Assembly: GCA_016929435.1 (NCBI GenBank)
Contig: JAFGIV010000005.1
Location: forward strand, 23,596 to 87,595
Length of the DNA stretch: 64,000 nt
From: Candidatus Uhrbacteria bacterium
GTDB lineage: Bacteria; Patescibacteriota; Patescibacteriia; SG8-24
Direction: 5' to 3'
Part shown: positions 461 through 59,092 of the stretch, piece by piece
Numbering within the stretch: the first letter of the stretch is position 1
Layout: each line of letters begins with the position of its first letter
Made by a program: the position numbers and the translations under genes
The notes under the pieces: model-generated
The model's database searches: none
Told to the model about the DNA's origin: nothing
Seen by the model: the letters and a program-made list of their open reading frames with translations, nothing else

Positions 461-537
461 TGGTGCGCCCAGGACGATTCGAACGTCCGACCTGCTGCTT
501 AGAAGGCAGCCGCTCTATCCGACTGAGCTATGGGCGC
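461..537 (-). tRNA. tRNA-Arg (anticodon TCT)
   Basis: Reverse complement folds as GCGCCCA-TA-GCTC...GAGC-G-GCTGC-CTTCTAA-GCAGC-...-TTCGAAT-...-TGGGCGC-A-CCA. The anticodon loop CTTCTAA gives UCU. CCA is encoded; total 77 nt. Confidence 0.88.
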
Positions 538-12374: not shown

Positions 12375-14384
12375 ATGTCCTATCCCCTAACGATAGCGAT
12401 CGTCGCCTCCGGGCTGGCCATCGCCTATGGGGCGCTTCTCATCCGGTGGGTACTGTCGAAACCCCAGGGTGACGAAAAAATGCGCTCCATCGCCAAAGCC
12501 ATCCAGGAAGGCGCCTCCGCCTACCTGATGAGGCAAAACAAGACCGCCGCCGTGGTGGCGGTTGTCCTGTTCCTGCTGATCGGTTGGCAATTGGCCTGGG
12601 TTACGGCCTTCGGCTTCCTTATTGGGGCAATCCTTTCGGGATTGGCCGGATTCATCGGCATGCAGGTTTCGGTCCGGGCCAATGTCCGCACCACGGAAGC
12701 CGCCAAATCCGGTCTTGGCAGTGCCCTGACCATGGCTTTCCGCGGCGGCACCGTAACCGGCATGTTCGTAGTCGGGCTTGGCCTTTTGGGGGTCACGGTT
12801 TTCTATGCGGTAACGAAGGACATCGGCGCCCTGATCGGACTCGGTTTCGGCGGATCCCTGGTCTCCATCTTTGCCCGACTGGGGGGCGGCATCTTCACCA
12901 AGGCCGCCGATGTGGGGGCTGACCTGGTCGGTAAGGTAGAGGCGGGCATTCCGGAGGATGACCCGCGAAACCCGGCCGTCATTGCCGACAACGTCGGGGA
13001 TAACGTCGGCGACTGCGCCGGAATGGCCGCTGACCTGTTCGAAACCTATGCGGTCACGGCCGTAGCCGCAATGCTTCTCGGTTCACTGGTCTTCGTCGGC
13101 AACGAAAACGCCGTCACCTACCCGCTGGCCCTGGGGGGCGTCTCCATCCTGGCTTCCGTTGTGGGCAGCCTGTTCGTCCGGCTGGGAACGAAAAAAAACA
13201 TCATGGGAGCCCTCTACAAGGGGCTGATCGCCGCGGGCATGGTGGCTGCCGTCCTGTTTTACCCGGTGACATCGTGGCTTATGGCCGAAAACGGCCTCTA
13301 TACGGTCACGTCCATCTATCTGGCCTCCCTGGTCGGCATCCTCGTTACGGCCGCCATTGTCCTCATTACCGAATACTACACCGGCACCAAATGGAAGCCG
13401 GTCCGTTCCATTGCCAAGGCCTCTGAAACCGGCCACGGCACCAACATCATAGCCGGACTGGCCGTATCGATGAAATCCACCGCCTGGCCTGTCGTGGCCA
13501 TTGCCGTCGGCATTGCCGCCGCCTATGCCCTGGCAGAGGAGTTCGGCGTGGCCATCGCCTCCATGTCCATGCTTTCCCTTACCGGAATCATCGTGGCCAT
13601 CGACTCCTTCGGCCCGATCACCGACAACGCCGGAGGGATCGCCGAAATGTCCGAATTGCCGGAAAGCGTCCGTAACGTAACCGATCCCCTTGACGCCGTA
13701 GGAAACACCACCAAGGCCGTTACCAAGGGCTATGCCATCGGTTCGGCCGGATTGGCGGCCGTGGTCCTCTTTTCGGACTATACCCATGCCCTATCCGAAA
13801 CCACGGGTAGGAATTTCGTGTTTTCCCTGTCTGACCACAAGGTCCTGATCGGTCTGTTCATCGGCGGGCTGATAACCTACCTGTTCGGGTCAATCGCCAT
13901 GGAATCGGTTGGGAGAGCCGCCGGTTCGGTGGTGGAGGAGGTCCGCCGGCAGTTCCGGGAAATCAAGGGAATCATGGAGGGACAGGCCAAACCCGACTAT
14001 GCCGCCTGCGTGGACATCGTCACCAAGGCGGCCCTCAGGGAAATGGTCGTACCGGCACTCCTGCCTGTAGCCGCCCCGATAGTGGTCGGGGTGATCCTGA
14101 AAAACCAGCTTGGTCCGGAGGCCTTGGGCGGCATGCTGGTCGGCGCCATCGTCACAGGACTGTTCATGGCCATCTCAATGACCACCGGAGGGGCGGCCTG
14201 GGACAACGCCAAAAAGTACATAGAGACGGGTGCCCACGGCGGCAAACGCTCCCTGGCTCACCAGGCTGCCGTTACTGGGGATACGGTCGGCGACCCCTAC
14301 AAGGATACCGCCGGACCGGCCATTAACCCGATGATCAAGATACTGAATATCGTTGCCCTTCTTATAGTCGGGCTGATGGTCTGA
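12375..14384 (+). CDS. hppA: Membrane-bound H+-translocating pyrophosphatase
   Basis: 669 aa, polytopic. Signature [20 protein letters not shown] plus [21 protein letters not shown]. Confidence 0.95.
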
Positions 14385-28092: not shown

Positions 28093-28143
28093 GTCCTGAT
28101 TATATCACGGCGCTTACGGCAATCGCGCCGCTACCCAAAATTC

Positions 28144-36613: not shown

Positions 36614-36656
36614 ATGCCTTAATTATATCATGGGGGGTGCTATAATTGCCCATGTC

Positions 36657-38748: not shown

Positions 38749-38945
38749 CCTTCCGGTTAGGAACTTGGTTCCGTCAGCTCGCATCGTTTCGGTGTGGGTT
38801 GGCGGGACTTTTTTATATTCGGGCCTCTTTAGGCACGGTGACGCTAAAATAACCTGCGGGAAGAGATTGGAATATCCATTGGCTGTCCGGTGAGGGATAG
38901 CCGAACCGTATTTTAAGCGTTTGTTTGCTATAATCAAACAGCCTT

Positions 38946-40842: not shown

Positions 40843-40953
40843 GGCCGTGATAGTTTGTTGTAGTCGGTGCGGATCGGCGGTGAAAGTCCCCGTGTGCGCC
40901 TACGCCTATGGCATTACGGACACGGTGAGGGGGGATTTTAGCAATAAAACAAA
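40843..40953 (+). repeat. Copy 1 of a ~110-nt repeated structured element
   Basis: About 85% identical to 46184-46293, with conserved ends GGCCGTGAT..GTTTGTTG and ..GGACACGGTGAGGGGG.ATTTTAGCAATAAAACAAA. Internal stem CCCCGTGT/ACACGG(TGA)GGGG; the variable central hairpin shows partly compensatory changes. Confidence 0.7.
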
Positions 40954-40978
40954 AACGAGATAGGTTTTAGGTTTTCAC

Positions 40979-41068
40979 GGAGGGGTGCCTGAGAGGTCGA
41001 AAGGGACGCACTCGAAATGCGTTGTCCGGGCAACTGGACCGTGGGTTCGAATCCCACCCCCTCCGCCA
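40979..41068 (+). tRNA. tRNA-Ser (anticodon CGA), class II with a long variable arm
   Basis: GGAGGGG...ACGCA-CTCGAAA-TGCGT...long arm...GTGGG-TTCGAAT-CCCAC-CCCCTCC-G-CCA; 90 nt. Confidence 0.85.
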
Positions 41069-41305
41069 GATTTTCATAAATGAGGGGAAGGATCGATCCG
41101 AAAACGGTCATCTATCCGGACGGTTGGGGCGGCCACGGCGGTCTTGTGGAGACGTAGGTTATCACGGACATTTCCGATGTGTTACCATAAAACCGTAAAG
41201 GTTGTCGCATTTAAGTTATTTTGCCCTCGGTATTCAGCGTCTTGAATTGCTTGAAATGCGGCTTGGGAGAATCTCAAACGAAGGTATCGGTAAACCAGCA
41301 AAAAT

Positions 41306-43264
41306 ATGAGAAGAATGGGGCGGGTAAAAGGGTTTAAGAAATTTTTTGCGCTCAGAAAAAATACTCTCGAGAAAGGCCGGTGGTTTTATGGGCCACGGAC
41401 GAGGCGCACCCGTGTTGAAGTTCCGCGGTCGCAAAGGCTGTTTTCCGGCGCCCTAAGGGGCGGACTCACTGTTTTTATCTCTGTTTTGATAGTTTGCGGG
41501 GTTGCTTATGCCGGCACCATAACTCCGCCGAGCGGAACACCCTCGGCCCAATTCTACACTCTTTCGGAAATCTACAACTTTATAACCGACAATACCGCCG
41601 CAACCGAGGGTGACCATGATTTCACCTTTTCAGACGGCCTAGCCGGCACAGGCCGCACCCTAACCGAAATTTACGGCGCCTTGGCCGGTTTGATTTCCGC
41701 CGATCAGGTCAAAAAAGACAGGACTTATCTCGGGGTAACGGGCACCTTAACTCCCGATGGCGGCACGGCCGTTGTCGCCGACCTGTTCAACGGCAAGACC
41801 GCCAACCTGACGGGCGATTGGAATCTGGACGGGGGGACCCTTAGTCTTGCCTGCGATACCGCAACCTTTGATGGTGCGGGAAATTTAGTTTCCGATACCC
41901 ATGACGGAGACGGAGACGGAACGAATAGGTGGTGCATAACGGATACTGATGACGTAACGGCCGCTGATGTGCTATCCGGCAAAATGGCGTGGATTAACGG
42001 CGCTGCCGCAACAGGCACCATGGCCAATAACGGCGCGTTCGCCCTAACCGCCAGCTCAACGGATCAGGAAATCGCCGCCGGCTATTGGGACGCGGGCACT
42101 TTGGCGGGAGACGCGGATTTGGTGGCGGGAAACGTCAGAAACGGCGTCAGCATATTCGGGGTAGTCGGCAACATGGTTGCGGGCTACCTTTTTGGGGACG
42201 GCGATGCTTCGAAAGTGCTTACTTCCGCTGCGGGCAATGACGGGGACAGCTCCTATTTGGCCGACAACCTGACGGCATCAACGGTTAAGAAGGGCGTTGG
42301 TTTCGGGGTGGGTCCGCTTACGGGGCTGTTTTTCGGCGACACCGACGCTTCCAGGGTTTTGACCACCGCGGATGGCGGCGGTGCGGCAAAGGGAACCTAT
42401 GACGCGTCAAATTTGTCGCCGACAACGGTTAGAAAAGGGACGGCTTTCGGGGTTTCCTCAACCGGCGCGTATTCTGGCTATCCGGGGTCTGGATGGGCAG
42501 GGTCAGGCGGTTCGACGGGCGCCTATTCGTGTGAATATTGGGACGATGACGGTAACCCGGGAACGCCTGATGTCGCCACGGGATGGTATTGGTTTGAGGA
42601 CGGTAACGGCGACGGTGACGATGCCGATCCGGATGATCCGGAGGACGGTCTTTGTGTCCAGGCCGCATCACGCGCCGCCGGCTTGTCGTGGAACGGCTAC
42701 GATTACGAAACCAATTACGATGCCACCTACATTGCGGGCTATACGTGTTTCGGCAGCTTCCCCAACGGCACGGTCAGTTCGTATAACGGCCTTGACTCCA
42801 CCGGCGCGCTCGATACGACATGGAATGACGGGGATTGCGCGTTGTGCCAAGCCGATTGTTATGATGGGGTAAAGGACTTGCCCGACCAAGGGTCATACAC
42901 GTGCGAGGGCGGGTGTGTTGCCGGGGCCGACGGCTATAACGGGCCCCTAACGCCGGGGGCTTTGGGCAATTGGAAGGGAACCAGATTGCCGAGTTCCGCC
43001 GAATTTTTCGGATTCTGTAGCACTGGCGGGACTAATTCGGGGGTAGGCGAATACGAGACGGGCTGCTCATCCGATGTTACGGGCGGCACCTATGGCGTAC
43101 AGGTCGGCAGAACGGGTGAATGCATAGACCCCATTGGCTGGGAATGGCTTTCGGAGCAGCACTCCACCACCTCTGCGCGGGTAGCCGGCAGTTACGCCTG
43201 TTCCAACTTCAGTTACGGTTATGTCTACTTTGGCTTCAGGTTCCGTGCCGTCTTCCGCCCGTAG
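41306..43264 (+). CDS. Large Gly/Asp/Thr-rich cell-surface protein with an N-terminal membrane anchor and internal repeats
   Basis: TM segment LTVFISVLIVCGVAYAG. Repeated ~40-aa units (…NVRNGVSIFGVVGNMVAGYLFGDGDASKVLT… / …VKKGVGFGVGPLTGLFFGDTDASRVLT… / …VRKGTAFGVSSTG…). Cys-rich C-terminal region. The start is uncertain (41306 or a downstream M). Confidence 0.65.
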   Translation: MRRMGRVKGFKKFFALRKNTLEKGRWFYGPRTRRTRVEVPRSQRLFSGALRGGLTVFISVLIVCGVAYAGTITPPSGTPSAQFYTLSEIYNFITDNTAATEGDHDFTFSDGLAGTGRTLTEIYGALAGLISADQVKKDRTYLGVTGTLTPDGGTAVVADLFNGKTANLTGDWNLDGGTLSLACDTATFDGAGNLVSDTHDGDGDGTNRWCITDTDDVTAADVLSGKMAWINGAAATGTMANNGAFALTASSTDQEIAAGYWDAGTLAGDADLVAGNVRNGVSIFGVVGNMVAGYLFGDGDASKVLTSAAGNDGDSSYLADNLTASTVKKGVGFGVGPLTGLFFGDTDASRVLTTADGGGAAKGTYDASNLSPTTVRKGTAFGVSSTGAYSGYPGSGWAGSGGSTGAYSCEYWDDDGNPGTPDVATGWYWFEDGNGDGDDADPDDPEDGLCVQAASRAAGLSWNGYDYETNYDATYIAGYTCFGSFPNGTVSSYNGLDSTGALDTTWNDGDCALCQADCYDGVKDLPDQGSYTCEGGCVAGADGYNGPLTPGALGNWKGTRLPSSAEFFGFCSTGGTNSGVGEYETGCSSDVTGGTYGVQVGRTGECIDPIGWEWLSEQHSTTSARVAGSYACSNFSYGYVYFGFRFRAVFRP

Positions 43265-43518
43265 TGATTTCCCGTCTTGACGATTTGGCAATTGGATTGA
43301 TTTGAATATTTGAACCTCGAAATTCATTTGTAAACCTTTCGTCGTCAAAGACGGCAAAGGGGCCATCGAAAACCGTGTCGCAGGCTCGGGACGTGTCGCC
43401 CGGATCGAGTGCCTTCGGGACTTTCTGGCTGAAATGCCACAGTTTGCTTTTGGGTTTTTTCACGGGGTTGCGGCCTATCGCCAAATGGTTATGTGGTATG
43501 ATTATTCCGTAGGCACTT

Positions 43519-45783
43519 ATGGGCAGGGAAATTCCGAATAGAAATTTATTTTTTGCCTTGTTTTTAACGCTTCTCATAGGCGGGTCTTTTTCGCTTTTCG
43601 GTAAATCCGCCCTGGCCTCGTCCACCGACGGCACTGTTGATGGGAGTTTCAAATACGCTTGGGGAGAGAACGTCGGATGGATTAATTTCGGCTGCGATAA
43701 CTGCAGTGTCCACGTTACGGACTCCGCTCTTTCCGGCCATGCTTTGGGCGAAACCGTCGGTTGGATAAATCTGGAAGACGTGGTGAACGACGGCCAGGGC
43801 AGCCTGTCAGGCTACGCTTGGGGAGAGAACGTCGGTTACATAAAATTCAATCCGGCCGGCGGCGGGGTAAACATTGACCCTTCCGGTGAATTTACCGGAT
43901 CGGCTTTGGGGGAAAACGTCGGCTGGGTGGTTTTTGGCGGGGATTACGGGGTCAAGACCGATTGGCGGCCGCAGGGCGCAAGGCCTGCCTGCAACAACTC
44001 CTTGGATGATGACGGCGACGGCAAGATCGATTACCCGGCAGACCCGGGATGTTCTTCCTTGGACGATACGGATGAGACGGATCCCGTTTTTGGCGGAGGC
44101 GGAGGCGGAGGCGGAGGCGGTGGAGGCGGAGGAGGCGGGGGTTTGCCGCCAGAGGCGTACAATCCGCCGACAGCGCCCGAAGGCGGGTTTGGGATTTTAA
44201 TAAACGACAACGCTGCGGAGACCGATTCCCGGAGGGTTACCCTGACCCTAATGGGCGGATCGGATACCAAGACGGTTTGGATTTCCGAAAAATTTCAATT
44301 TCCGGAAGGTTTCCAGGTTTCCTACGATTCTTCCTTGCCGCAAGTCCCGGTTTCTTTTGACCTGTCCTCGGGCGAAGGCACAAAAATCGTTTACGCCAAG
44401 TTCTGCACTCAGTGGGGCCGGTGTTCCGATGTTGTTTTTGACGGCATAATAAGGGTCGGGGAAACGGTGGTTGAAAAGATAGTGGAAGTCCCGAAAAAAA
44501 TCGTTGAGGAAATCAGGAAGGTCCCGGGAGTTATCGCCCCGCTAATTCCCGATTTTTCGAAGCCCAAGCCACCCGAAGTGCCGGATGGGAAATCGGCGCT
44601 CAGGGAAGCCCCCCCGGTCTTTCGGGGCAAATGGCGGCTTCTGCCCTCTGACCCGATCAGGGAGTTTGTCTTGGCTCCCCTGCCCAAAGGAATCAGGAAC
44701 CTGGCCAGAAAATTTCCGGAACTCGAGATAACCCTTAGGGAAGTCGGCGTCAGCAGAATTACGGATGTCGCCAAACTAAAATCCGTAAAACTGACCCTGC
44801 CCGGGATGACGGAAAGAGTCGGATTGCCGACGGCAAGGATTGAACCCGGCAAGTTTGCCCCGCCCCAAGGCGTTCCCGTAGCCAGGCTTTCTCCGGCGGC
44901 TAAACAGCAATTGCCGACGGAAATCGTCTTTGCCAAAACCGGCGGCGAATTAGTTGATTTCAGCATTGCCCTGACGGTTAACGATAGGGGCGAACCGCAG
45001 CAGAGAATTTCCACGATTTCCGGCAAGCCCCTGCAATTGGCGGTGAAACCCGACAGTCCGGTCAGGGGCGTCAGGGGTTACGTGGTGTTCAGGTCCAGGG
45101 CCAGCCAAGCCGCATCCGTTGATGTCCCGCTCGGTTCCTTGTTGGCATCGGTGGTTTTTGCCAACCCGGCTTTTGCCAAGACGCAGGACCAGCCCGTCAG
45201 GGTTGAGGAAAAGCTGGTTTTGCTGGAGTTCGAGTATGCCGATCCAGACGGCGACGGAATCTATACCGCGGAGATTGACGCGCCGTTGGTTGCGGGCGAA
45301 TACGAGATCATCACGGTCATGGATTTCGATGATTCGGGGCTCGGGAAAAAGGAAATCCGTTTGACCGTTGTGGTCGATCCCGAAGGGTACGTTTATGAGC
45401 GGGACGGCGACAGGGAAACCCGCATCCCGGGAGCCGTTGTCTCCATTTATTGGCTGAATCCCGAAACGAAACAATATGAGATGTGGCCGGCAGGGGAATA
45501 CCAGCAGGAAAATCCGCAGACCACCGATGTCAGGGGCACCTACTCGTTTTTGGTGCCAGAGGGCCACTATTACCTTAAGGCCGAGACTCCGGGTTATCTT
45601 GCCTACGACGGCAGGCCGTTTGAGGTCAGGGAAGGCTCCGGCGTCCACATCAATATTGAAATCAAGACTAAATACCGGTGGCTGAAGATCGTCGATTGGA
45701 GAACGATTTTACTGGCCATCGTAATAATTCTGCTGCTCTATAACTTTTATCGTGATAAAGCCAGAGAGCGGTCGGTGAGGTAA
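43519..45783 (+). CDS. Surface protein with four WGENVGWINF repeats, a poly-Gly linker, a CarboxypepD_reg-like domain and a C-terminal TM anchor
   Basis: Signal peptide. Four repeats of (A/Y)(W/L)GE(N/T)VGW(I/V)NF. G17 linker encoded by a (GGCGGA)n tract at 44092-44145. The region DVRGTYSFLVPEGHYYLKAETPGY. C-terminal helix ILLAIVIILLLY. Confidence 0.7.
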   Translation: MGREIPNRNLFFALFLTLLIGGSFSLFGKSALASSTDGTVDGSFKYAWGENVGWINFGCDNCSVHVTDSALSGHALGETVGWINLEDVVNDGQGSLSGYAWGENVGYIKFNPAGGGVNIDPSGEFTGSALGENVGWVVFGGDYGVKTDWRPQGARPACNNSLDDDGDGKIDYPADPGCSSLDDTDETDPVFGGGGGGGGGGGGGGGGGLPPEAYNPPTAPEGGFGILINDNAAETDSRRVTLTLMGGSDTKTVWISEKFQFPEGFQVSYDSSLPQVPVSFDLSSGEGTKIVYAKFCTQWGRCSDVVFDGIIRVGETVVEKIVEVPKKIVEEIRKVPGVIAPLIPDFSKPKPPEVPDGKSALREAPPVFRGKWRLLPSDPIREFVLAPLPKGIRNLARKFPELEITLREVGVSRITDVAKLKSVKLTLPGMTERVGLPTARIEPGKFAPPQGVPVARLSPAAKQQLPTEIVFAKTGGELVDFSIALTVNDRGEPQQRISTISGKPLQLAVKPDSPVRGVRGYVVFRSRASQAASVDVPLGSLLASVVFANPAFAKTQDQPVRVEEKLVLLEFEYADPDGDGIYTAEIDAPLVAGEYEIITVMDFDDSGLGKKEIRLTVVVDPEGYVYERDGDRETRIPGAVVSIYWLNPETKQYEMWPAGEYQQENPQTTDVRGTYSFLVPEGHYYLKAETPGYLAYDGRPFEVREGSGVHINIEIKTKYRWLKIVDWRTILLAIVIILLLYNFYRDKARERSVR

Positions 45784-45791
45784 GGAAATCT

Positions 45792-46154
45792 ATGAATAAA
45801 CCAAAAACAACCCCGGTCCTTGTCGCGGTTCTGCTCGTCGGCACCGTCTTTTTGGGCGTCAGGTACTTTTCCGTCGCCAAGGAGCTTCGTCAGACCCGAA
45901 GCGCACTGCAGACCCAAACGGTTAACGAAAAAGTTCTGGAGTTCACCAAATTCTTCATTGGCGAGGTTTTGAGGGCGGACGGTGAAATTGATTTTGACAC
46001 AAGGTTGAAACTGGAGATTGCCGTCGGAAATCTGGATGATGGGGAAATTTTGAGCCAATGGAAGAGGTTTGTTGGCTCAGAGACCGAAGCCGAAGCGCAG
46101 GAAGAAGTCAAAAATCTCCTGGAATTGCTGGTGGGCAAGGTGAAGGTCAGGTAA
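45792..46154 (+). CDS. Small hypothetical membrane-anchored protein (120 aa)
   Basis: RBS AAGGAAA; N-terminal TM; coiled-coil C-terminus. Confidence 0.5.
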   Translation: MNKPKTTPVLVAVLLVGTVFLGVRYFSVAKELRQTRSALQTQTVNEKVLEFTKFFIGEVLRADGEIDFDTRLKLEIAVGNLDDGEILSQWKRFVGSETEAEAQEEVKNLLELLVGKVKVR

Positions 46155-46183
46155 AAAACCGTGTGTAACGGGAAACAAAACCG

Positions 46184-46293
46184 GCCGTGATGGTTTGTTG
46201 CGGTCGGTGCGGACGTGCGGCAAGAGTCCCCGTGTGCGCCTATGCAAGGGCATGGCGGACACGGTGAGGGGGAATTTTAGCAATAAAACAAAT
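46184..46293 (+). repeat. Copy 2 of the ~110-nt repeated structured element
   Basis: Direct repeat of 40843-40953. Followed at ~46300-46345 by a hairpin + U-run (ACCGTCC..GGGCGGT-TTTTTT), then a low-GC island. Confidence 0.7.
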
Positions 46294-46409
46294 AAGGGTT
46301 TGTCGAGACAAACGCAAGACCGTCCGGAGGGGCGGTTTTTTGATGAAATTGACTATCTTGTGCTTATGCTGTACTGTAGCCTGTCACAGTCTGGTATACT
46401 AAACATAAT

Positions 46410-46949
46410 ATGGGTCAACCAGATAAGCTCCGAAATTTAATCCTATATATCCTGTCCCACCAGGATTATCAGGAGGGCGGCGTAAAGAAGCTGAACAAGC
46501 TGCTTTATTTTATTGATTTTTATTTTTATCGCGATCATGAGCGGTTAATTTCTGATGCAAAATACGCCAAGGCCCCAATGGGGCCAGTCATTGATTCTTA
46601 TCAGGAGGTATTTGCCAAACTTGTTGCGGACGGAGACTTGAGGCTGATTGAAGATGTCAGCACGAAGGTATACAAGCCACTTCGTCAGGCTGAGGTAGGG
46701 ATGTTTACTTCCGAGCAGGTCGATCACATATCCAAGGTGCTTGATCGATACGGAAAATTGTCGGGACGCGATCTCGAGTGGATCTCCCACCAGCAGCAGC
46801 CGTGGGTTCTGACCGAGAATTTTGGCGACATCATTGATCCCGACCTTGCCTTGTTGATTGATGATGAGGTGAGCGATTCCGACACCAGTTTTATAGAAAA
46901 CGAGAATCTTAGGAACGAGCTGCAAAATCTCGCCAACCAGGCCGATTAG
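46410..46949 (+). CDS. Panacea-domain (DUF4065, SocA-like) protein; putative antitoxin
   Basis: KLRNLILYILSH...GGVKKLNKLLYFIDFYFYRDHERLISDAKYAKAPMGPV matches the DUF4065/Panacea N-terminal core. Low-GC gene. Confidence 0.65.
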   Translation: MGQPDKLRNLILYILSHQDYQEGGVKKLNKLLYFIDFYFYRDHERLISDAKYAKAPMGPVIDSYQEVFAKLVADGDLRLIEDVSTKVYKPLRQAEVGMFTSEQVDHISKVLDRYGKLSGRDLEWISHQQQPWVLTENFGDIIDPDLALLIDDEVSDSDTSFIENENLRNELQNLANQAD

Positions 46950-46962
46950 GGAGAGGCTTGCT

Positions 46963-47304
46963 ATGGGAGAAATCGTAATCGAGGTAATTGAGTCGTTGGA
47001 TAGACAGGTCAACGACCTTTCCTCGTCGGATTCAAAAATCAGGAAGCTGTTCAATAAACAGCGGCGGTTCATGTCACTGAACCCGCATTACTCATCGTTA
47101 GGAAGGAAGAAATTGCAGAACGTATTTGATCAGTACGGGAACCAATTGGAGGAAATCAGGCTAAACAGGTACTGGCGGATCGTATTTATCGTCAGGGATG
47201 AGGGGCAGAGGGTGGTTTGGTTGAAGCTTTGCGATCACGATGAAATTGCAAGAAACAACCGACTGTTCATTGATGGCCATCCGGAAGGGCCGCCGGCCAT
47301 TTGA
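46963..47304 (+). CDS. RelE/ParE/HigB-fold putative toxin (113 aa)
   Basis: C-terminal pattern KKLQNVFDQYGNQLEEIRLNRYWRIVFIVRDEGQRVVWLKLCDHDE resembles the RelE/HigB core (YRI.F.v.d...v.iL.i.dHd). It lies 13 nt after the Panacea gene. Confidence 0.5.
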   Translation: MGEIVIEVIESLDRQVNDLSSSDSKIRKLFNKQRRFMSLNPHYSSLGRKKLQNVFDQYGNQLEEIRLNRYWRIVFIVRDEGQRVVWLKLCDHDEIARNNRLFIDGHPEGPPAI

Positions 47305-48536: not shown

Positions 48537-48689
48537 TATGCAGTAGGTAGGTAACGTGTGGCATAAGGGGTGTGCGTAGGGAAATCCGCGCACCCCCTAT
48601 TTTTTTTGCCGCCCTTTCCCGAATGTGCTATAATAAAAAAATCAAACGTCCCACCGGGACCGCATAACTCAAAGCTAAGCGTAAATCGT

Positions 48690-52331: not shown

Positions 52332-53708
52332 ATGAAGAGAGCCCTGTTTCCCCTGGTTATTGTTGCCCTGACCCTGGTCGGGGCCGGTTGCCTGAACGGC
52401 CAGCCCAAGATGACCCCCGTCACCCTGGAATATTGGCGCATGGAGGACGACCCGTCCGACCTGGATCCGGTCATTGCGGCCTACCGGGAGACTCACCCCC
52501 AAGTGACCGTCAATGTCACCCGCTTTCCCAGGGAGGATTACCGGAAAACCCTGCTGACGGCCCTGGCCGAGGGCCGCGGACCGGACATGTTCAACGTTCC
52601 GCACGCCTGGCTGCGGGGTTGGATGAAAAAAATATCCCCAATGCCGGCCGAACGGTCAGTGGTCGAGCGGACGGCGGACGAATCCGGGCAGCCGGTAAAT
52701 GTCGTCCGGAAGAAGCCGGCCATGAGCCTGCTGCAGCTGGACCGGGATTTTGCGGAAGTGGCGGCCAAGGCCGTGGTTTTCGAGGTCATAACGGACGAGA
52801 AGGCCAACACCAGGGAAAGGCAGGTTTTCGCCCTGCCGTTCTCGGCCGATACCCTGGCCATGTACTACAACCGGGACCTCCTCCGCAACGCCAACATCGG
52901 CGAGCCCCCCAAGACCTGGGCCCAGCTCCAGGAACAGGCAGCCATCCTTAGCCGGAAGGGGGAGGACGGGAAACTGGAGCAGTCCGGGGCGGCCTTGGGG
53001 TGGTCGAACGTCGGGCGGAACACCGAACTCCTGGCGGCCTTGATGGCCCAGAACGGCGCGCCCATGAACAACGCCGGACGGCCGTATTTCTGGTCCGCTC
53101 CGGCCAAGTGGGACAGGGGAACCCTTCCCGGGGTGGAGGCCCTGGGCTTTTACCGCAGTTTTTCGGACCCCAATTCCTCCAACCGGTCCTGGGACCGTGA
53201 TTTCAGCAATGACCTGGATACCTTCATCGCCGGGCGGACGGCCTATTATTTCGGGTTGCCGGAAGACGCCAAAAGGATTCGGGCCATGGCCCCGCGGCTC
53301 GATCTCGGCGTTGCCCCGTTGCCCCAGATCAAGGCGGACAGGAGAATAAACATCCCGCTGTTTCCCGTGGAGACCGTCTCGAAGGACTCCAGATACCCGG
53401 GTTATGCCTGGGATTTCCTGGAGTTCGCCGCTTCGGCGGACCAGGTCAGGGGTTTCCTCTCGTCTTCCGGCAGGCCGGCGGCCCTGCGTGACCTGATTGA
53501 GGAACAGAGGGGCGACGCTGCCGTAGGCCCGTTTGTCGGCCAGGTCCTGACCGCCGAGAGCTGGTATTTGGGGTACGACTACGCGAAGACCGAAAGCCTG
53601 TTCCGTGATATGGTGGAAACCGAGCCCAGCCGGGAAAACACCTACGTGAAGATCCTTACCGAATACGGCAGCCAGGTTTCCCGGACCTACGTCGCCCCTA
53701 ACTACTGA
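52332..53708 (+). CDS. Extracellular solute-binding lipoprotein (SBP family 1, sugar-ABC-like), orphan
   Basis: Lipobox LVGAGC; SBP_bac_1-like length and motifs. No adjacent permease or ATPase genes. Confidence 0.7.
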   Translation: MKRALFPLVIVALTLVGAGCLNGQPKMTPVTLEYWRMEDDPSDLDPVIAAYRETHPQVTVNVTRFPREDYRKTLLTALAEGRGPDMFNVPHAWLRGWMKKISPMPAERSVVERTADESGQPVNVVRKKPAMSLLQLDRDFAEVAAKAVVFEVITDEKANTRERQVFALPFSADTLAMYYNRDLLRNANIGEPPKTWAQLQEQAAILSRKGEDGKLEQSGAALGWSNVGRNTELLAALMAQNGAPMNNAGRPYFWSAPAKWDRGTLPGVEALGFYRSFSDPNSSNRSWDRDFSNDLDTFIAGRTAYYFGLPEDAKRIRAMAPRLDLGVAPLPQIKADRRINIPLFPVETVSKDSRYPGYAWDFLEFAASADQVRGFLSSSGRPAALRDLIEEQRGDAAVGPFVGQVLTAESWYLGYDYAKTESLFRDMVETEPSRENTYVKILTEYGSQVSRTYVAPNY

Positions 53709-53714
53709 TACGCT

Positions 53715-54599
53715 ATGAGAAAGATCAGGAAAGCCATCATCCCGGTCGCCGGCTTGGCCACCCGTTTCCTTCCGGCCACCAAGGCCCAACCCAAGACCAT
53801 GATGACCCTGGTGGACAAGCCCATCATCCAGTACATCGTGGAGGAGGCCGTGGCCGCCGGAATTGAGCAGGTGATTTTCGTCACCGGTTCCAACCAGAAC
53901 TCCATCCAGGACCACTTTGACAGCAATTTCGAGCTGGAACACGTCCTTCAGCAGAGGGGAAAGCTCAAGGAACTGGAGGAGGTCGTCCGGACCACCAACA
54001 TGGCCAAGTTCGTCTATACCCGCCAGCATTCCCCGCGCGGCGACGGGCACGCCATCCTGATGGCCAAGGACCTTGTCGAGAACGAGCCGGTGGTCGTCAT
54101 GTACGGGGACGACATCTTCGACGCCCGGGTTCCGGTGACCGCCCAACTGATCGAGACCTACGAGAAATACGGCGAACCGGTGATTGCCCTATACGACGTC
54201 GGGCGGGAGAACGTCTCCAAGTACGGAATTGCCGGGGGGCGGATGCGGGACGATCGGGTCATGGAGGTGGAGGGTTACGTGGAGAAGCCCAATATCGGGG
54301 AGGCGCCGTCGAGCTATGCCGGCGTGGCCCGGTATGTCGTCACCCCGGAGTTGATGGCCGTCCTGGCCAGGCAAAAGGGCGGTTTTGACGGGGAGATCCG
54401 TCTGGCCGATGCCTTTACCGAATACCTGTCCGAAGGCCTGGGGAAGGTCGCCGGAAGGATAGTCGATGCCCGCCGTTACGACTGCGGCGACAAGACCGAG
54501 TTCGTCAAGGCAACCCTGGATTTCGCACTGAAGAACGGGGAGGTAAACCGGGACGGGGTCCTGACCGAATACGTCAGGCACCGGGCGTCCGAACTTTAG
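53715..54599 (+). CDS. galU: UTP-glucose-1-phosphate uridylyltransferase
   Basis: KAIIPVAGLATRFLPATKAQPKTMMTLVDKPIIQYIVEE is the canonical GalU N-terminus. Confidence 0.93.
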   Translation: MRKIRKAIIPVAGLATRFLPATKAQPKTMMTLVDKPIIQYIVEEAVAAGIEQVIFVTGSNQNSIQDHFDSNFELEHVLQQRGKLKELEEVVRTTNMAKFVYTRQHSPRGDGHAILMAKDLVENEPVVVMYGDDIFDARVPVTAQLIETYEKYGEPVIALYDVGRENVSKYGIAGGRMRDDRVMEVEGYVEKPNIGEAPSSYAGVARYVVTPELMAVLARQKGGFDGEIRLADAFTEYLSEGLGKVAGRIVDARRYDCGDKTEFVKATLDFALKNGEVNRDGVLTEYVRHRASEL

Positions 54600-54608
54600 C
54601 CGGAACCT

Positions 54609-56036
54609 ATGGAAGGACCGATTCGTTTGGGAAGGAGGGGAACGGCAACCAGGCTGTTGCCTGCGCTGCTGGCCGCGGCGATCCTGGCCTTCGGCGGTTT
54701 CGGCTGCAAGGTCGAAAGCCGGGAGATAAGGGAGAAGACCCAGCCGGTAACGCTCAGGTGGTGGAGCGTTTTCAGCGACTACAGCGCCCTGGCCCCCGTC
54801 ATCAGGGATTTCAGGGTACGGCACCCGAACGTCAAGGTGGAATACCGCAAGTTCGGGTTCGACGAGTACGAGCAGGCCGTCCTGGACGCCATGGCCGAGG
54901 GCCGCGGACCGGATGTCCTGAGCCTTCACCACACCTGGCTTCGGGAATGGCAGGAACGGTTGGTGCCGTCTCCGGCCACCCTGGAGATGGCTTTCGTCGA
55001 GATACAGGGATCAATCAAGAAGGAACAGGTGACGGTTTTGCGCGAGGTTTCCGGGGCGACTCCCGGGCAGGTAAACAACGATTTCCTGGATGTCGTGTCC
55101 GGGGACGTGATCCTTCCGGTTCCCCAATCCGATCCGCGCCTTCCCCCCGTGTCCAGGGTTTTCGGGCTGCCGCTGTCCGTTGACACCATGGTGATGTACT
55201 ACAACCGGGGAATCCTGGATGCGGCGGAGATACCCAAGCCGGCCCAGGACTGGGGAGAGTTCCAGCAACAGGTCCGCAGCCTGACGAAACTGGACGAGTC
55301 CGGTGGGCTGGTCCAGTCGGCCGTGTCCCTCGGGACGGCCGACAACGTCGAGCGGGCCGCGGACATCCTGTCCCTGCTCATGATCCAGAACGGAACGCCC
55401 ATGTCCGACCAGACCGGCGGGGTTACCTTTGACCGGCATTCGGAGGCGACGGTCGGGCAGCCGATGACCCCCGGAGCCACGGCCCTGGTCTTCTACAACG
55501 ATTTCGCCAATCCCCTGAAGGAGGTCTATACCTGGAACGAGGAACAGCCCGATTCCCTCCAGGCCTTCATGTCCGGAAAGACCGCCTATTTCTTCGGCTA
55601 TTCCTATCACCTGCCGCAGATCCGGGCCCAGGCCCCTGACCTGAACCTGGGGATTGCCGCCATGCCGCAGATTGCCGGGAACCAGCCGGTCAACTACGCC
55701 AACTACTGGGTGGAGACGGTTTCCGGGAAGACGGCCCACCTGGATGAGGCCTGGAGCCTGGTCCGTTTCGTCACCCAGGCCGATAACGCCAAGAAATACC
55801 TCTCTTCAGCCGGGCGGCCCACGGCCCTTCGGCAGCTGGTTAACGGGCAGCTGGAGGAGAGCGACATGTCGGCGTTCGCCTCCCAGCTCCCTTCGGCTCG
55901 GAGCTGGTATCGGGGAAAGGACGGTCAGGCCACGGAGCGGGTGTTCCTGGACATGATATCGGCCATGCTCCAGCCGGAGGCCGATCCCCAAAGGATTCTG
56001 GAGGTGGGGGCGGTCAAGGTCAACCAGACCCTTTAA
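54609..56036 (+). CDS. Extracellular solute-binding lipoprotein (SBP family 1), paralog of 52332-53708
   Basis: Lipobox FGGFGC. Conserved blocks are shared with the upstream paralog (VTL.YW..., AEGRGPD, TWL..W, YYNRD/YYNRG, LD.AW, GRP.ALR). Confidence 0.7.
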   Translation: MEGPIRLGRRGTATRLLPALLAAAILAFGGFGCKVESREIREKTQPVTLRWWSVFSDYSALAPVIRDFRVRHPNVKVEYRKFGFDEYEQAVLDAMAEGRGPDVLSLHHTWLREWQERLVPSPATLEMAFVEIQGSIKKEQVTVLREVSGATPGQVNNDFLDVVSGDVILPVPQSDPRLPPVSRVFGLPLSVDTMVMYYNRGILDAAEIPKPAQDWGEFQQQVRSLTKLDESGGLVQSAVSLGTADNVERAADILSLLMIQNGTPMSDQTGGVTFDRHSEATVGQPMTPGATALVFYNDFANPLKEVYTWNEEQPDSLQAFMSGKTAYFFGYSYHLPQIRAQAPDLNLGIAAMPQIAGNQPVNYANYWVETVSGKTAHLDEAWSLVRFVTQADNAKKYLSSAGRPTALRQLVNGQLEESDMSAFASQLPSARSWYRGKDGQATERVFLDMISAMLQPEADPQRILEVGAVKVNQTL

Positions 56037-56072: not shown

Positions 56073-56621
56073 ATGACAGGAAAGACAAGACGAACGGCGG
56101 CCGCCTCGGCCCTCATGGCCCTCTCCCTTCTTTTTGGGGCGGCCGTGGCCGGACCGGTCCTGGCCCAGGCGGAGATGGATTTCACGGAACAGGAGGTGGC
56201 GGACTACCAGGCCGCCACGACCCGGAGGGCGTTCGTGATCGTCCCGGAATGCGCCAGGGCCACGCCGGCCAACACCATCCCCCAACTGTCCTGCGTCATG
56301 GAGATGTTCGGCAATGTCGCCACCATGATCCTGGGGGTGACGGGCAGTTTTGCCCTGCTGATGTTCGTATACGGCGGTTTCCTGATGGTGACCTCGGCCG
56401 GAGACTCCTCAAAGGTGTCGGCCGGAAAGAAGGTCCTGACCAACGCCGTAATCGGCATATTCATCATCATGGTTTCCGGCATTGCCCTGCGCTATGCCTT
56501 GGGCATCCTGGTCCGGAACAACAACTTCCGGCTGGTCGGACAGCCCTGTGCCGGGAAGACCGGACAGGTCTACGTGCTCATGCCGGACGGATCGATCGGC
56601 TGTGCCGCCGTTTCCCAGTGA
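56073..56621 (+). CDS. VirB2/TrbC-like (T4SS-pilin family, PF18895-type) small secreted membrane protein, paralog 1
   Basis: Signal peptide, variable Cys-containing mature N-terminus, conserved C-terminal ~70-aa two-helix module (ILGVTGSFALLMFVYGGFLMVTSAGDSSKVSAGKKVLTNAVIGIFIIMVSGIA). Confidence 0.7.
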   Translation: MTGKTRRTAAASALMALSLLFGAAVAGPVLAQAEMDFTEQEVADYQAATTRRAFVIVPECARATPANTIPQLSCVMEMFGNVATMILGVTGSFALLMFVYGGFLMVTSAGDSSKVSAGKKVLTNAVIGIFIIMVSGIALRYALGILVRNNNFRLVGQPCAGKTGQVYVLMPDGSIGCAAVSQ

Positions 56622-56648
56622 CGGGGGCGGATTTTACCCAGAACACCT

Positions 56649-57164
56649 ATGCTTACCGGAAGAACACTGGCGACAGCGGCCCTTCTGGCCACGATCGGCT
56701 GTTACGTGGCCGGCCCGGCCCTGGCGGAGGAGGCCTTTATTTGCGAAGGCACCGACGACAACCCCTACCCCACGGCCGAAGCCTGTGACATGAACTGCCT
56801 GGGGGAATGCACGACCGTCAACCTGACGCCGGAAGGGTCGGTCGATACCACTGTTTCGGGGGGCGCCAAACCAACGGAGGCCACTCCGGCCTTCCAGACC
56901 AGGATCCTGGAAAACCCCCTGGGAAAGGAGGATATGGACATCCCCATGGTCATAGCCCGGGTGATTGAGGTTTTCACGGGAATCGTCGGGTCCTTGGCCC
57001 TGCTGGTTTTCATCTACGGCAGCTTCCTGCTCATGACCTCGGCCGGGGAAAGCAAGAGGGTGGAGTCCGGAAAGCAAGCCATGTTTTGGGCGGTCGGCGG
57101 CCTGGTCGTCATGTTCGCGTCCTACGCCTTCCTGAAGGTCCTGTTGAGGGGGTTGGGAACCTGA
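56649..57164 (+). CDS. T4SS-pilin-like small protein, paralog 2
   Basis: Same architecture. Cys-rich N-terminal region; FTGIVGSLALLVFIYGSFLLMTSAGESKRVESGKQAMFWAVGGLVVMFASYAF. Confidence 0.7.
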   Translation: MLTGRTLATAALLATIGCYVAGPALAEEAFICEGTDDNPYPTAEACDMNCLGECTTVNLTPEGSVDTTVSGGAKPTEATPAFQTRILENPLGKEDMDIPMVIARVIEVFTGIVGSLALLVFIYGSFLLMTSAGESKRVESGKQAMFWAVGGLVVMFASYAFLKVLLRGLGT

Positions 57165-57191
57165 CGGCCCTGAAATAACAAAGACATTGGT

Positions 57192-57572
57192 ATGGCAAAA
57201 AGGCTCAAAAGGCGGTTGGCGGGTTTGGCGGCTGCCGCGGTTGTCGCGCACCAGTCGTTCCTGTCGGCAGGATCGGCCCTGGCCCAGGGTGAGGGGCAGA
57301 GTTCCGGCAACGTCGGCGTGCCGACTCCGGTCGGCGGGGACGTGACCCTGTCCGAATACGTCGGCCGGTTCATCAACGGGGCCTTGGGCCTGACCGGCGT
57401 GGTGGCCCTGGCGGTTTTCGTTTATGCCGGTTTCCTGATGATGACCGCCCGGGGTAACGCCAAGCAGGACGAGAAAGCCAAGCAGACCATGTTTTGGGCC
57501 TCCATCGGCCTTTTGGGGGTGTTCGCCTCCTATGCGGCACTTAGGTTCGTCCTGCAGATGTTGGGGGCCTGA
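57192..57572 (+). CDS. T4SS-pilin-like small protein, paralog 3
   Basis: FINGALGLTGVVALAVFVYAGFLMMTARGNAKQDEKAKQTMFWASIGLLGVFASYAA. Confidence 0.7.
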   Translation: MAKRLKRRLAGLAAAAVVAHQSFLSAGSALAQGEGQSSGNVGVPTPVGGDVTLSEYVGRFINGALGLTGVVALAVFVYAGFLMMTARGNAKQDEKAKQTMFWASIGLLGVFASYAALRFVLQMLGA

Positions 57573-57584
57573 GTTTTGTTTGGC

Positions 57585-57613
57585 TTAACCTTGGCCCGAA
57601 AATGCGGTATAAT
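57585..57613 (+). promoter_or_regulatory. Internal promoter in the pilin array (TTAACC, 17-bp spacer, TATAAT)
   Basis: Perfect -10 TATAAT at 57608-57613; an RBS AAGGGGGTGA precedes the ATG at 57668. Confidence 0.45.
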
Positions 57614-57667
57614 GCACTTAGGCATTTTGTGGATATTTTCCACTGTCTTGAAAGGGGGTGAGCAAAT

Positions 57668-58045
57668 ATGAACAAGTTACTAACCAAGAAGATCGCCGTC
57701 GGTGCGGCCATGGCAGCCGCCATGTTGCCGATCGTGGCCATGGCCCAGGGGCCGGATCTCGGCCTGGAATACGCCACGGCCACCGGGTTGACCTCCACTG
57801 ACGTCCGTACCACGATCTCCATGCTGATCAATGCCTTCATGGGGCTTTTGGGCATCGTGGCGGTGTGTCTAATCCTTTTCGGCGGTTTCAAGTGGATGAT
57901 GGCGGCCGGCAACACGGAAAGGGTGGAAGAGGCCAAGAAACTGATGATTTCCGGCGTCATCGGCCTGATCATCATCATGACCTCCTACTCCATTGCCCAG
58001 TTCGTCATCGGTGCCATCCAGAAGGGAACCTCGGGTGAGATATAG
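57668..58045 (+). CDS. T4SS-pilin-like small protein, paralog 4
   Basis: LINAFMGLLGIVAVCLILFGGFKWMMAAGNTERVEEAKKLMISGVIGLIIIMTSYSIAQFV. Confidence 0.7.
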   Translation: MNKLLTKKIAVGAAMAAAMLPIVAMAQGPDLGLEYATATGLTSTDVRTTISMLINAFMGLLGIVAVCLILFGGFKWMMAAGNTERVEEAKKLMISGVIGLIIIMTSYSIAQFVIGAIQKGTSGEI

Positions 58046-58135
58046 GAAACTGGATAGCAAAGCTTTGCCCCGAATCCTTCCGGATCGGGGAGTGTTGCCT
58101 CCGGCACCGCTCCCCGGTCCGGAAAAAGACCGCCT

Positions 58136-58558
58136 ATGGAAGGGAAAACAGTAAGGAATTTCATCGTTTGCCTGTCGTTCGCCTTCGTGGCGGCGGCTTT
58201 CGGTACCTTCGGTCCGCTGGCTTCCGCCCCGGCCCTGGCCTTGGATACGGGTTTGGAGAGCACGGCCCTGCATGCCGGACTTTCCGAGGGTGATGACGGT
58301 TCCAATGCCGACGTTGCCATAATCGCCGGGCGGGTGATCAACGCCCTTTTGGGGCTGGTTGGGGTGGTTTTCCTGGTCCTGGTGATATTCGCCGGATACA
58401 AGTGGATGATGGCCCGCGGCAACGCCAAGGAAACGGAGGACGCCAAGAACATGCTTGTTCAGGCCGTGATCGGACTGCTCATCATCTTCGCCGCCTATGT
58501 CCTGGTGGATTACCTCCTGGGATTGGCCATCTTTGAGGTGGTGGGGGTGGACCTGTAG
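58136..58558 (+). CDS. T4SS-pilin-like small protein, paralog 5
   Basis: VINALLGLVGVVFLVLVIFAGYKWMMARGNAKETEDAKNMLVQAVIGLLIIFAAYVLVDYL. Confidence 0.7.
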   Translation: MEGKTVRNFIVCLSFAFVAAAFGTFGPLASAPALALDTGLESTALHAGLSEGDDGSNADVAIIAGRVINALLGLVGVVFLVLVIFAGYKWMMARGNAKETEDAKNMLVQAVIGLLIIFAAYVLVDYLLGLAIFEVVGVDL

Positions 58559-58639
58559 TCCTTGCGTTTTTCTCGGATAAGGCCGCATAATAAGGATAAT
58601 TAGACCTAAATCTAAAACCGTTTTAACTAAGCCGTAATT

Positions 58640-59092
58640 ATGAAAAGACTAACCAAGAATCTGGCGGCGTTCGGCCTGACAGTGGCCCTCTGCCTGCCGT
58701 TGGCCGCCATGGCCGTTTCCCCGGTCAGCGGCGATGCCGGCGGGAATGCGGTCAGGTTGGCCCAACAGGGGGATCTGGGGGACATCACCTCCAATTTCGA
58801 GAAGGTCGGCACCAGTTCCGGCCTGTCCGGTTCCGCATCACGGGACCTGCCCACCATCATCGGGGCGATCATCAACGCCTTCCTGGGGCTCTTGGGCATC
58901 GTGCTGGTGGTCATCATCATCTTCGCCGGCTACAAGTGGATGATGGCCCGCGGAAACACCAAGGATGTTGACGATGCCAAGACCATGATCCTCAATGCGG
59001 TCATCGGCATGGTGATCCTGATGGCGGCCTATGCCATTGCCCAGTTCGTCCTGAAGGCCGTGGCCAAGGGCACGACCGGCACTGATTTCTAG
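58640..59092 (+). CDS. T4SS-pilin-like small protein, paralog 6
   Basis: IINAFLGLLGIVLVVIIIFAGYKWMMARGNTKDVDDAKTMILNAVIGMVILMAAYAIAQFV. Confidence 0.7.
   Translation: MKRLTKNLAAFGLTVALCLPLAAMAVSPVSGDAGGNAVRLAQQGDLGDITSNFEKVGTSSGLSGSASRDLPTIIGAIINAFLGLLGIVLVVIIIFAGYKWMMARGNTKDVDDAKTMILNAVIGMVILMAAYAIAQFVLKAVAKGTTGTDF

Follow-up and report, generated by a model that had tools for sequence, protein, structure and literature searches.

An orphan two-copy intergenic repeat around a native tRNA-Ser gene and a decayed retroelement in an Uhrbacteria genome, with a candidate minus-strand promoter

Introduction

What are two similar sequences of about 110 nt doing on either side of a tRNA gene and a short run of surface-protein genes? 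The question arises in an uncultured Candidatus Uhrbacteria bacterium of the candidate phyla radiation (CPR), in a 64,000-nt stretch of contig JAFGIV010000005.1 (assembly GCA_016929435.1, positions 23,596 to 87,595). This whole stretch is the window, and positions are given in its coordinates unless another contig is named. The original prediction, made from the sequence alone, took the pair for a functional RNA family (cis-regulatory, riboswitch-like, or a small RNA) with a covarying hairpin, or alternatively for ancient attachment sites (attL/attR) of a 5.3-kb insertion carrying two giant surface-protein genes.

The reading that we put forward is a different one, held tentatively and with less than even confidence: each copy may be a self-contained, lineage-restricted intergenic module that serves as a short noncoding transcription unit on the minus strand. 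The small-RNA idea would then survive only in altered form, moved to the opposite strand and resting on a promoter motif instead of on structure. Below, this reading is weighed against its rivals as the evidence that bears on each of them is presented.

Results

The two copies (Table 1) lie in direct orientation and are 85.6% identical across 111 nt, with one indel (blastn E 9e-32). The pair of about 85% identity in the original prediction is real, with its second copy placed one base too high. Repeat finding, pattern search, blastn, nhmmer, and a covariance model all return two copies only in the 64-kb window, and both contexts are reproduced by independent Logan contigs from one sequencing run of the same sample, so the pair is no artefact of the window's assembly. 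The edges are sharp, as the flanks of the two copies align no better than shuffled sequence. Copy 1 is preceded by AATT and followed by AACG, copy 2 by AACC and TAAG, with nothing in common. The repeat starts with GGCCGTGAT and ends with AAAACAAA, and an internal 6-bp UUUGUU/AACAAA match is the sole complementarity near its termini.

Both copies are intergenic. Copy 1 sits within the 192-nt gap between the stop of a CYTH gene (40786) and tRNA-Ser (40979), where it starts 57 nt past the last stop codon of the upstream plus-strand operon and ends 25 nt before tRNA-Ser(CGA), just as had been described. Copy 2 starts 28 nt past the stop (46154) of a gene for a 120-aa protein. The terminator-like hairpin and low-GC DNA reported to follow copy 2 were likewise found: a strong hairpin with a T6 run forms a terminator at 46319-46341, and GC then falls to 0.47-0.52.

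The case for a minus-strand unit starts from the right-hand end of the repeat, where an AT-rich block reads as a putative extended -10 promoter, TGCTAAAAT, on the minus strand. Both boxes are intact, so that each copy carries a promoter of its own as far as the motif can tell, and there is no conserved open reading frame (ORF) downstream of either. The motif TGNTAWAAT occurs at 7 sites in the window against 1.69 expected. Outside the repeat, all five sites face an ORF, and four of the five are followed after 6-11 nt by the ATG of an ORF of 352-608 aa, a spacing which indicates that these four are probably leaderless promoters; the tRNA-Cys gene also has an upstream box, TGGTAAAAA. The repeat unit begins 10 nt upstream of its box, and what was duplicated would therefore comprise a promoter and about 86 nt of transcribed sequence.

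From these elements we infer promoter firing, the extent of the RNA, and its regulatory effect, as follows. Minus-strand transcription would start about 7 nt downstream of the box, and the predicted RNA would consist of a long 5' stem-loop and then a C/A-rich, G-poor, unstructured tail. It would converge with the 3' end of the upstream plus-strand operon, which at copy 1 is the Wzy_C-CYTH operon and at copy 2 an acquired operon, the relic of a diversity-generating retroelement (DGR) described below. Because the plus-strand terminator of this acquired cassette lies beyond copy 2, the cassette transcript is expected to read through copy 2, and RNA from copy 2 would be fully complementary to the 3' untranslated region (UTR) of the operon. 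It is conceivable that this RNA acts on the cassette operon by cis-antisense or by transcriptional interference. The two copies would be old paralogues, 14% diverged, flanking a native tRNA-Ser gene where foreign DNA accumulated.

Extended -10 boxes of the form TGNTATAAT lie at 28099-28107 (minus), 36622-36630 (minus), 36638-36646 (plus), 38926-38934 (plus), and 48626-48634 (plus). Their position upstream of the ATG of long ORFs suggests that leaderless mRNAs are perhaps widely used in this genome. The box at 48626 implies that the call of a 245-aa ORF from a GTG at 48570 begins too early.

Several observations weigh against a minus-strand transcription unit. A terminator scan calls no minus-strand terminator at either copy; by inspection, copy 2 has only a 4-bp stem followed by U6, located 28 nt past the end of the unit, with no counterpart at copy 1. 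Since one promoter box is a duplicate of the other, the two count as a single independent event. A duplex scan of the C/A-rich tail against the window for a target in trans yielded none that stands out, with a best non-self z of about -4.4 among some 6,400 windows. The repeat has no homologue in any collection scanned, nor in the nearest relative. To these points must be added the manner in which the two copies differ.

The helix first reported, CCCCGTGT pairing with ACACGG(TGA)GGGG, is present in both copies, and in RNA form CCCCGUGU...ACACGG(UGA)GGGG encloses an inner stem-loop. Two stem transitions in copy 1 leave G.U when the minus strand is read but A.C when the plus strand is read, and its hairpin is thus better kept on the minus strand (-19.5 versus -16.4 kcal/mol). 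Covariation of the inner hairpin, on which the original prediction leaned, did not hold up: 13 of 16 pairs are invariant, three are paired in copy 2 and unpaired in copy 1, and none has changed on both sides, for a score of 0 when pairs are counted explicitly, in a comparison of only two sequences that has little power to detect compensatory change. What had been given as GCC-tat-GGC versus ATGC-aagg-GCAT is a one-sided change together with a change in the loop.

The 16 differences between the copies, 10 of them transitions, are unclustered, and their spread fits random placement (longest difference-free run, P = 0.56; sum of the three longest runs, P = 0.15; gap dispersion, P = 0.17). For constraint on the termini and stem, which had been described as conserved, this placement gives no support. 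Decay was also simulated: the hairpin of one copy received random mutations matched in number and type to the changes seen, and stability was compared. Random mutation of the copy 2 hairpin yields about the stability of copy 1 (P = 0.74 on the plus strand and 0.19 on the minus strand, where the simulated mutants are slightly less stable than copy 1). Starting from copy 1, the stability of copy 2 is seldom reached (P = 0.002 and 0.03), and this asymmetry makes copy 1 look like an eroded version of a copy-2-like ancestor.

These patterns are what would be expected if about 111 bp had been copied when rearrangements carried foreign DNA to the tRNA-Ser locus, through single-crossover or illegitimate recombination for instance, with no present function and with an inherited hairpin and promoter-like box that are slowly eroding. 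Such a neutrally decaying duplication, somewhat unlikely in itself, is nearly as likely as the minus-strand unit. The random placement of the differences with 10 of 16 transitions, the likeness of the copy 1 hairpin to a randomly mutated copy 2, and the lack of compensatory change all agree with it, as do the failure to find relatives in the collections scanned, the fact that the nearest relative lacks the element at its orthologous locus, and the location of the repeat at a synteny break with acquired genes. It sits less well with the fact that 111 nt have been kept twice in a genome of the compact CPR type, with both promoter boxes intact inside a 19-nt block free of differences, or with a unit that is sharp-edged on both sides. 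Nor does any mechanism link the left copy to an insertion, since that copy is on the far side of a native tRNA gene.

The search for relatives of the repeat covered several collections. The helix with a variable loop was scanned as a pattern against 185,579 species genomes (one per species), the 5' block against JGI metagenomes, and six blocks against IMG/VR; such exact-pattern scans are insensitive to strongly diverged copies. The genome scan did not recover the window itself, which places the source metagenome-assembled genome (MAG) outside that collection, and gave five chance matches with no similarity past the pattern. The 5' block gave five chance matches from one soil lineage in the JGI metagenomes, and the six blocks gave only chance matches in IMG/VR, with similarity stopping at the pattern. 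A hidden Markov model from the two sequences (nhmmer) and a calibrated covariance model found no third copy in the window, in 227 kb of CPR loci, or in 1.2 Mb of viral loci. The further copies that the original prediction had proposed to look for were thus not found in the window beyond the two, in the relatives' loci, or in the collections scanned. At gathering score, Rfam models match three tRNAs only in the window, and at E<=10 the two repeat regions return just chance matches to fragments of frameshift or leader families, which lie beside the repeat or outside it.

With these results, the idea of a conserved structured-RNA family, whether riboswitch-like or cis-regulatory, is largely refuted, and we regard it as extremely improbable. 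A stable hairpin in both copies speaks for it, set against which there is no Rfam match, no covariation, no homologue or further copy, and no such element at the orthologous tRNA-Ser locus; copy 2, moreover, has nothing downstream to regulate before a terminator. The functional RNA family of the original prediction, be it cis-regulatory, riboswitch-like, or a small RNA, is in this sense without support.

Restriction to one lineage would also be expected of a small dispersed or mobile repeat, akin to a miniature inverted-repeat transposable element (MITE) or a repetitive extragenic palindromic (REP) element and maybe with an outward promoter as in Correia elements, of which more copies would exist elsewhere in the genome of about 1 Mb while the two seen here flank the island by chance or through local hopping. 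The repeat is a discrete, sharp-edged unit, intergenic only and absent from the orthologous site of the relative, and the two segments that are extra compared with that relative (CYTH plus copy 1, and the cassette plus copy 2) each end in a copy. On inspection, however, the copies lack terminal inverted repeats, and their junctions show neither a target-site duplication nor a common target motif. The 64 kb contain just the two copies, with no transposase close to them, and we consider a mobile repeat unlikely. Inspection of the repeat ends led us to reject a MITE as such, and inspection of the bulge a K-turn. An integron attC site was rejected as well: the ends carry GTT...AAC in the opposite order to RYYYAAC...GTTRRRY, only the right half is palindromic, and there is no integrase.

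The position of the copies, 57 and 28 nt past the last stop codon of a plus-strand operon, could also be accommodated by an element that works on the plus strand. In such a scheme the hairpin with AUUUU would serve as an intrinsic terminator or 3'-UTR stabiliser of the upstream operon, or the repeat would be a leader or small RNA transcribed with tRNA-Ser. Other terminators in the window likewise have only about four U residues, and the 5' GCCGUG can alternatively pair with the 3' strand of the stem. We nevertheless find this decidedly unlikely, as the plus-strand hairpin of copy 1 is degraded (-16.4 versus -25.5 kcal/mol in copy 2, with three pairs lost), a second and much stronger terminator follows copy 2, the repeat has no plus-strand promoter, the terminator scan calls neither site, and the element is missing upstream of the orthologous tRNA-Ser.

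Table 1. Features of the repeat locus in window coordinates, with LOOT RNA positions on related contigs
Feature	Position	Strand	Remarks
Repeat copy 1	40843..40953	+	111 nt; covariance-model score 139.6 bits
Repeat copy 2	46183..46292	+	110 nt; covariance-model score 140.4 bits
Imperfect hairpin, copy 1	40886..40933		minimum free energy (MFE) -16.4 kcal/mol (+ strand), -19.5 (- strand)
Near-perfect hairpin, copy 2	46226..46272		MFE -25.5 kcal/mol (+ strand), -22.3 (- strand)
Extended -10 promoter-like box TGCTAAAAT, copy 1	40935..40943	-	predicted start near 40928
Extended -10 promoter-like box TGCTAAAAT, copy 2	46274..46282	-	predicted start near 46267
tRNA-Ser(CGA)	40979..41068	+	native; 88/90 identical to the gene of the nearest relative (L187), same position after Wzy_C
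DGR target (variable) protein gene, 652 aa	41306..43264	+	
Variable repeat (VR), 3' end of target gene	43139..43264	+	differs from relatives' template repeats (TRs) at TR adenines (AAC codons)
DGR reverse transcriptase (RT) remnant	43290..43520	-	77 residues left (~300-376 of 420)
Membrane or surface protein, 754 aa	43519..45783	+	GWINF-type repeats, weak CarboxypepD_reg match
120-aa protein	45792..46154	+	N-terminal hydrophobic segment
Small hairpin (46298-46313), then intrinsic terminator (stem 46319-46336 and T run)	46298..46341	+	after copy 2
LOOT RNA (RF03000)	L036 12787-12908; L037 10817-10938; L182 12235-12355; L184 4140-4260	-	86-88 bits

Whether the copies mark the ends of an insertion depends on the history of what lies between them. 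The nearest relative found, L187, was chosen by its SpoIID-like protein (65% identity) and is a 1.5-Mb JGI contig with a GC content of 0.595. It keeps the order S20, HolA, PolA, tRNA-Cys, S11 peptidase, SpoIID, flippase, Wzy_C, and tRNA-Ser(CGA), with the tRNA-Ser gene 40 nt past Wzy_C and followed by its own terminator. The conserved step from Wzy_C to tRNA-Ser, together with identity at 88 of 90 positions, shows that the tRNA-Ser gene between the copies is native. On the 5' side the window has the CYTH gene and copy 1 in addition, both absent from the relative, and synteny based on CYTH is not conserved and is uninformative. Synteny breaks directly after tRNA-Ser: the cassette, copy 2, and everything beyond differ, and the genes downstream of tRNA-Ser in the relative have no homologue in the window.

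A native tRNA-Ser inside the bracket argues against a simple attL/attR pair, and the repeats are thus not simple insertion scars. One part of the original att alternative stands, as the surface-protein genes are horizontally acquired, direct repeats do bracket DNA that includes them, and relatives of the cassette travel with tyrosine or serine recombinases. The remainder does not fit an integrated element spanning 40954-46182. Foreign homology covers 41178-46156 only, and hence not all of the bracketed DNA. The repeat does not overlap the tRNA, and no second copy of a tRNA-Ser segment longer than 14 nt, including its 3' end, occurs in the window. Neither Pfam searches of the ORFs nor tblastn with the relatives' integrases revealed an integrase or its remnant in the bracketed DNA. 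In seven other lineages the cassette is accompanied by neither a tRNA nor the 111-nt repeat, and the 14% divergence is spread across all 111 nt. An attL/attR pair is accordingly very unlikely.

The sole match of the relatives' integrases in the window is a XerC/D-like gene at 607-1482 (minus), beside tRNA-Arg at 461-537 (minus). No other tyrosine-recombinase gene occurs in the window; this one, 40 kb away from the repeat, has a XerC/D-like C terminus and is 23-24% identical to the cassette-linked integrases.

Two marginal similarities (P ~0.06-0.07 for each) concern the trailer of the tRNA-Ser gene. The sequence 71-107 nt downstream of tRNA-Ser in the relative resembles window positions 41144-41177, just left of the foreign homology, and an 11-mer from the same trailer stretch recurs in the terminator after copy 2, at 46320-46330. 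If the similarity is real, the cassette and copy 2 may have been inserted into the native tRNA trailer, with the two sites as its split remains. A resemblance of the 5' end of the repeat to the promoter region upstream of the relative's tRNA-Ser gene was dismissed as not significant (P ~0.4).

The bracketed genes encode proteins of 652, 754, and 120 aa and are not the two giant surface-protein genes of the original prediction. They belong to a DGR, a system whose mechanism has been reviewed (PMC3240598) and which is documented in CPR bacteria (PMC8144416). When positions 43139-43264 are aligned with the VRs and TRs of three related loci (L034, L035, and L036), the variable columns are the TR adenines, which is the signature of a DGR. 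In the relatives, VR/TR pairs are 117-118 nt long and 86-91% identical, and the cassette runs in the order target, bAvd, a gap of about 350 nt with the template repeat, RT on the opposite strand, the 754-aa homologue, and the 120-aa homologue. Neither TR nor Avd is found in the window; Avd, the TR, and the rest of the RT (about 80% of its gene) have been deleted. The three remaining ORFs are still open and the VR is intact. Judged by its gene content, the cassette is a dead DGR relic, made up of an apparently frozen target gene and an accessory gene pair.

The homology of the window to related cassettes is confined to 41178-46156. Homologues of the 754-aa protein are 70-82% identical in MAGs labelled Doudnabacteria, Portnoybacteria, Brennerbacteria, Pacebacteria, and others, the best being a Doudnabacteria protein at 82%. 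By comparison, identity with the nearest relative found is only 51-65% for the core proteins of the window, and the cassette must therefore be horizontally mobile and acquired. The 754-aa gene is a conserved partner of this DGR type, and in relatives a 120-aa homologue always follows it.

The repeat pair was also considered as a TR/VR pair and rejected, because its 16 mismatches show no adenine specificity, with A in copy 1 at 4 of them and in copy 2 at 3, and because both copies are intergenic. Separately, two features of the related cassettes were recorded. At L034 6858-9025, L035 2842-5015, and L036 7822-9992, the RT gene is opposite in strand to the VR, TR, and target gene, so in this DGR type the template RNA and the RT mRNA must come from different, convergent transcripts. 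An identical 792-aa protein and a 120-aa gene occur in two assemblies (L185 8194-10931 and L186 5385-12738); since only one of the two has an adjacent DGR (Lcl_C target, Avd, and RT), the presence of the DGR varies beside a fixed gene pair.

A parallel to copy 2 is provided by LOOT RNA. In two lineages (L036/L037 and L182/L184), its gene lies directly beyond the 120-aa gene of the related cassette in convergent orientation, with a tyrosine integrase next. LOOT is a minus-strand RNA gene of about 121 nt, in the slot that copy 2 fills and on the strand predicted for copy 2. It differs in having four hairpins with GNRA loops, where the repeat has one long hairpin. Homology of the repeat with LOOT was rejected, given that there is no match in 46120-46360 at E<=10 nor in the window at gathering score. 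Direct repeats derived from LOOT were absent from the L036 and L182 contigs. The presence of LOOT in the same slot of related cassettes nonetheless sets a precedent and raises the prior for a convergent small-RNA gene there.

It could be speculated on this basis that the repeat is a new small-RNA gene that replaces LOOT in a fixed slot beside a mobile, DGR-associated surface-protein module of CPR bacteria, a proposal that we consider quite improbable. If it were true, the module would be functionally coupled to a convergent small RNA, acting as an antisense regulator of the operon 3' end or as a chromosomal or island recombination site, and LOOT, an orphan RNA, would gain its first functional context. 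LOOT has no assigned function, and its repeated occurrence at this position in related cassettes offers a lead on what the family does. On the contig L188 (Brennerbacteria), a degraded LOOT-like stretch can be seen by eye in the same place, at about 12470-12560, below the Rfam threshold.

Discussion

When the repeat is placed beside known systems, it falls into a familiar class, as a new case from one genome of either a paralogous small transcription unit or a repeat between genes. Paralogous small-RNA gene pairs, such as OmrA/OmrB and AbcR1/2, occur in bacterial intergenic regions. The repeat resembles them in having two copies of about 100 nt in the same orientation, a putative promoter of its own within the duplicated unit, a conserved stem-loop, and a variable part. 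In contrast to them, it has no convincing terminator, is confined to a single genome, and has its copies 5.3 kb apart instead of adjacent.

Correia/NEMIS-type MITEs are miniature repeats that bear promoters. They share with the repeat a discrete intergenic unit of about 100-150 bp, restriction to one lineage, and a promoter-like box with a hairpin, whereas the repeat shows no terminal inverted repeats and no target duplication and was seen in only two copies. With the attL/attR sites of tRNA-associated islands it has in common direct repeats at a tRNA locus that holds foreign DNA, yet it lies 5' of the tRNA without overlap, has the native tRNA between its copies and no integrase, and is long and 14% diverged. 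A DGR TR/VR pair would match it in length (about 110-120 nt) and identity (about 85-90%), and the repeat also adjoins a DGR relic, but its mismatches are not specific to adenine, neither copy is at the 3' end of an ORF, and the true VR of this cassette is elsewhere (43139-43264).

As it stands, an orphan two-copy repeat of one uncultured Uhrbacteria genome matters little, and nothing found supports a conserved structure for it. What the analysis contributes is in large part corrective, in that covariation fails, the bracketed genes are a dead and horizontally acquired DGR, and the tRNA is native. If the minus-strand promoter reading holds, CPR bacteria would have an antisense RNA, specific to this lineage, where a surface-protein operon ends. 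To our knowledge, very few regulatory RNAs are known in these bacteria.

Additional observations

The lower-GC stretch after copy 2 starts with a gene encoding a SocA/Panacea-domain antitoxin, followed by a weak ParE-like toxin match (46410-47304), which is likely to be a toxin-antitoxin pair. The SocA gene has a promoter-like site of its own at 46381-46409.

Further downstream, at 52533-55216 and 56332-58957, tandem families of short paralogous genes share a conserved hydrophobic motif (FxGxKWMMA type), which by eye looks pilin- or VirB2-like. A solute-binding-protein-like gene is also present there as two diverged copies (repeat families D1, D2, D5, and D9).

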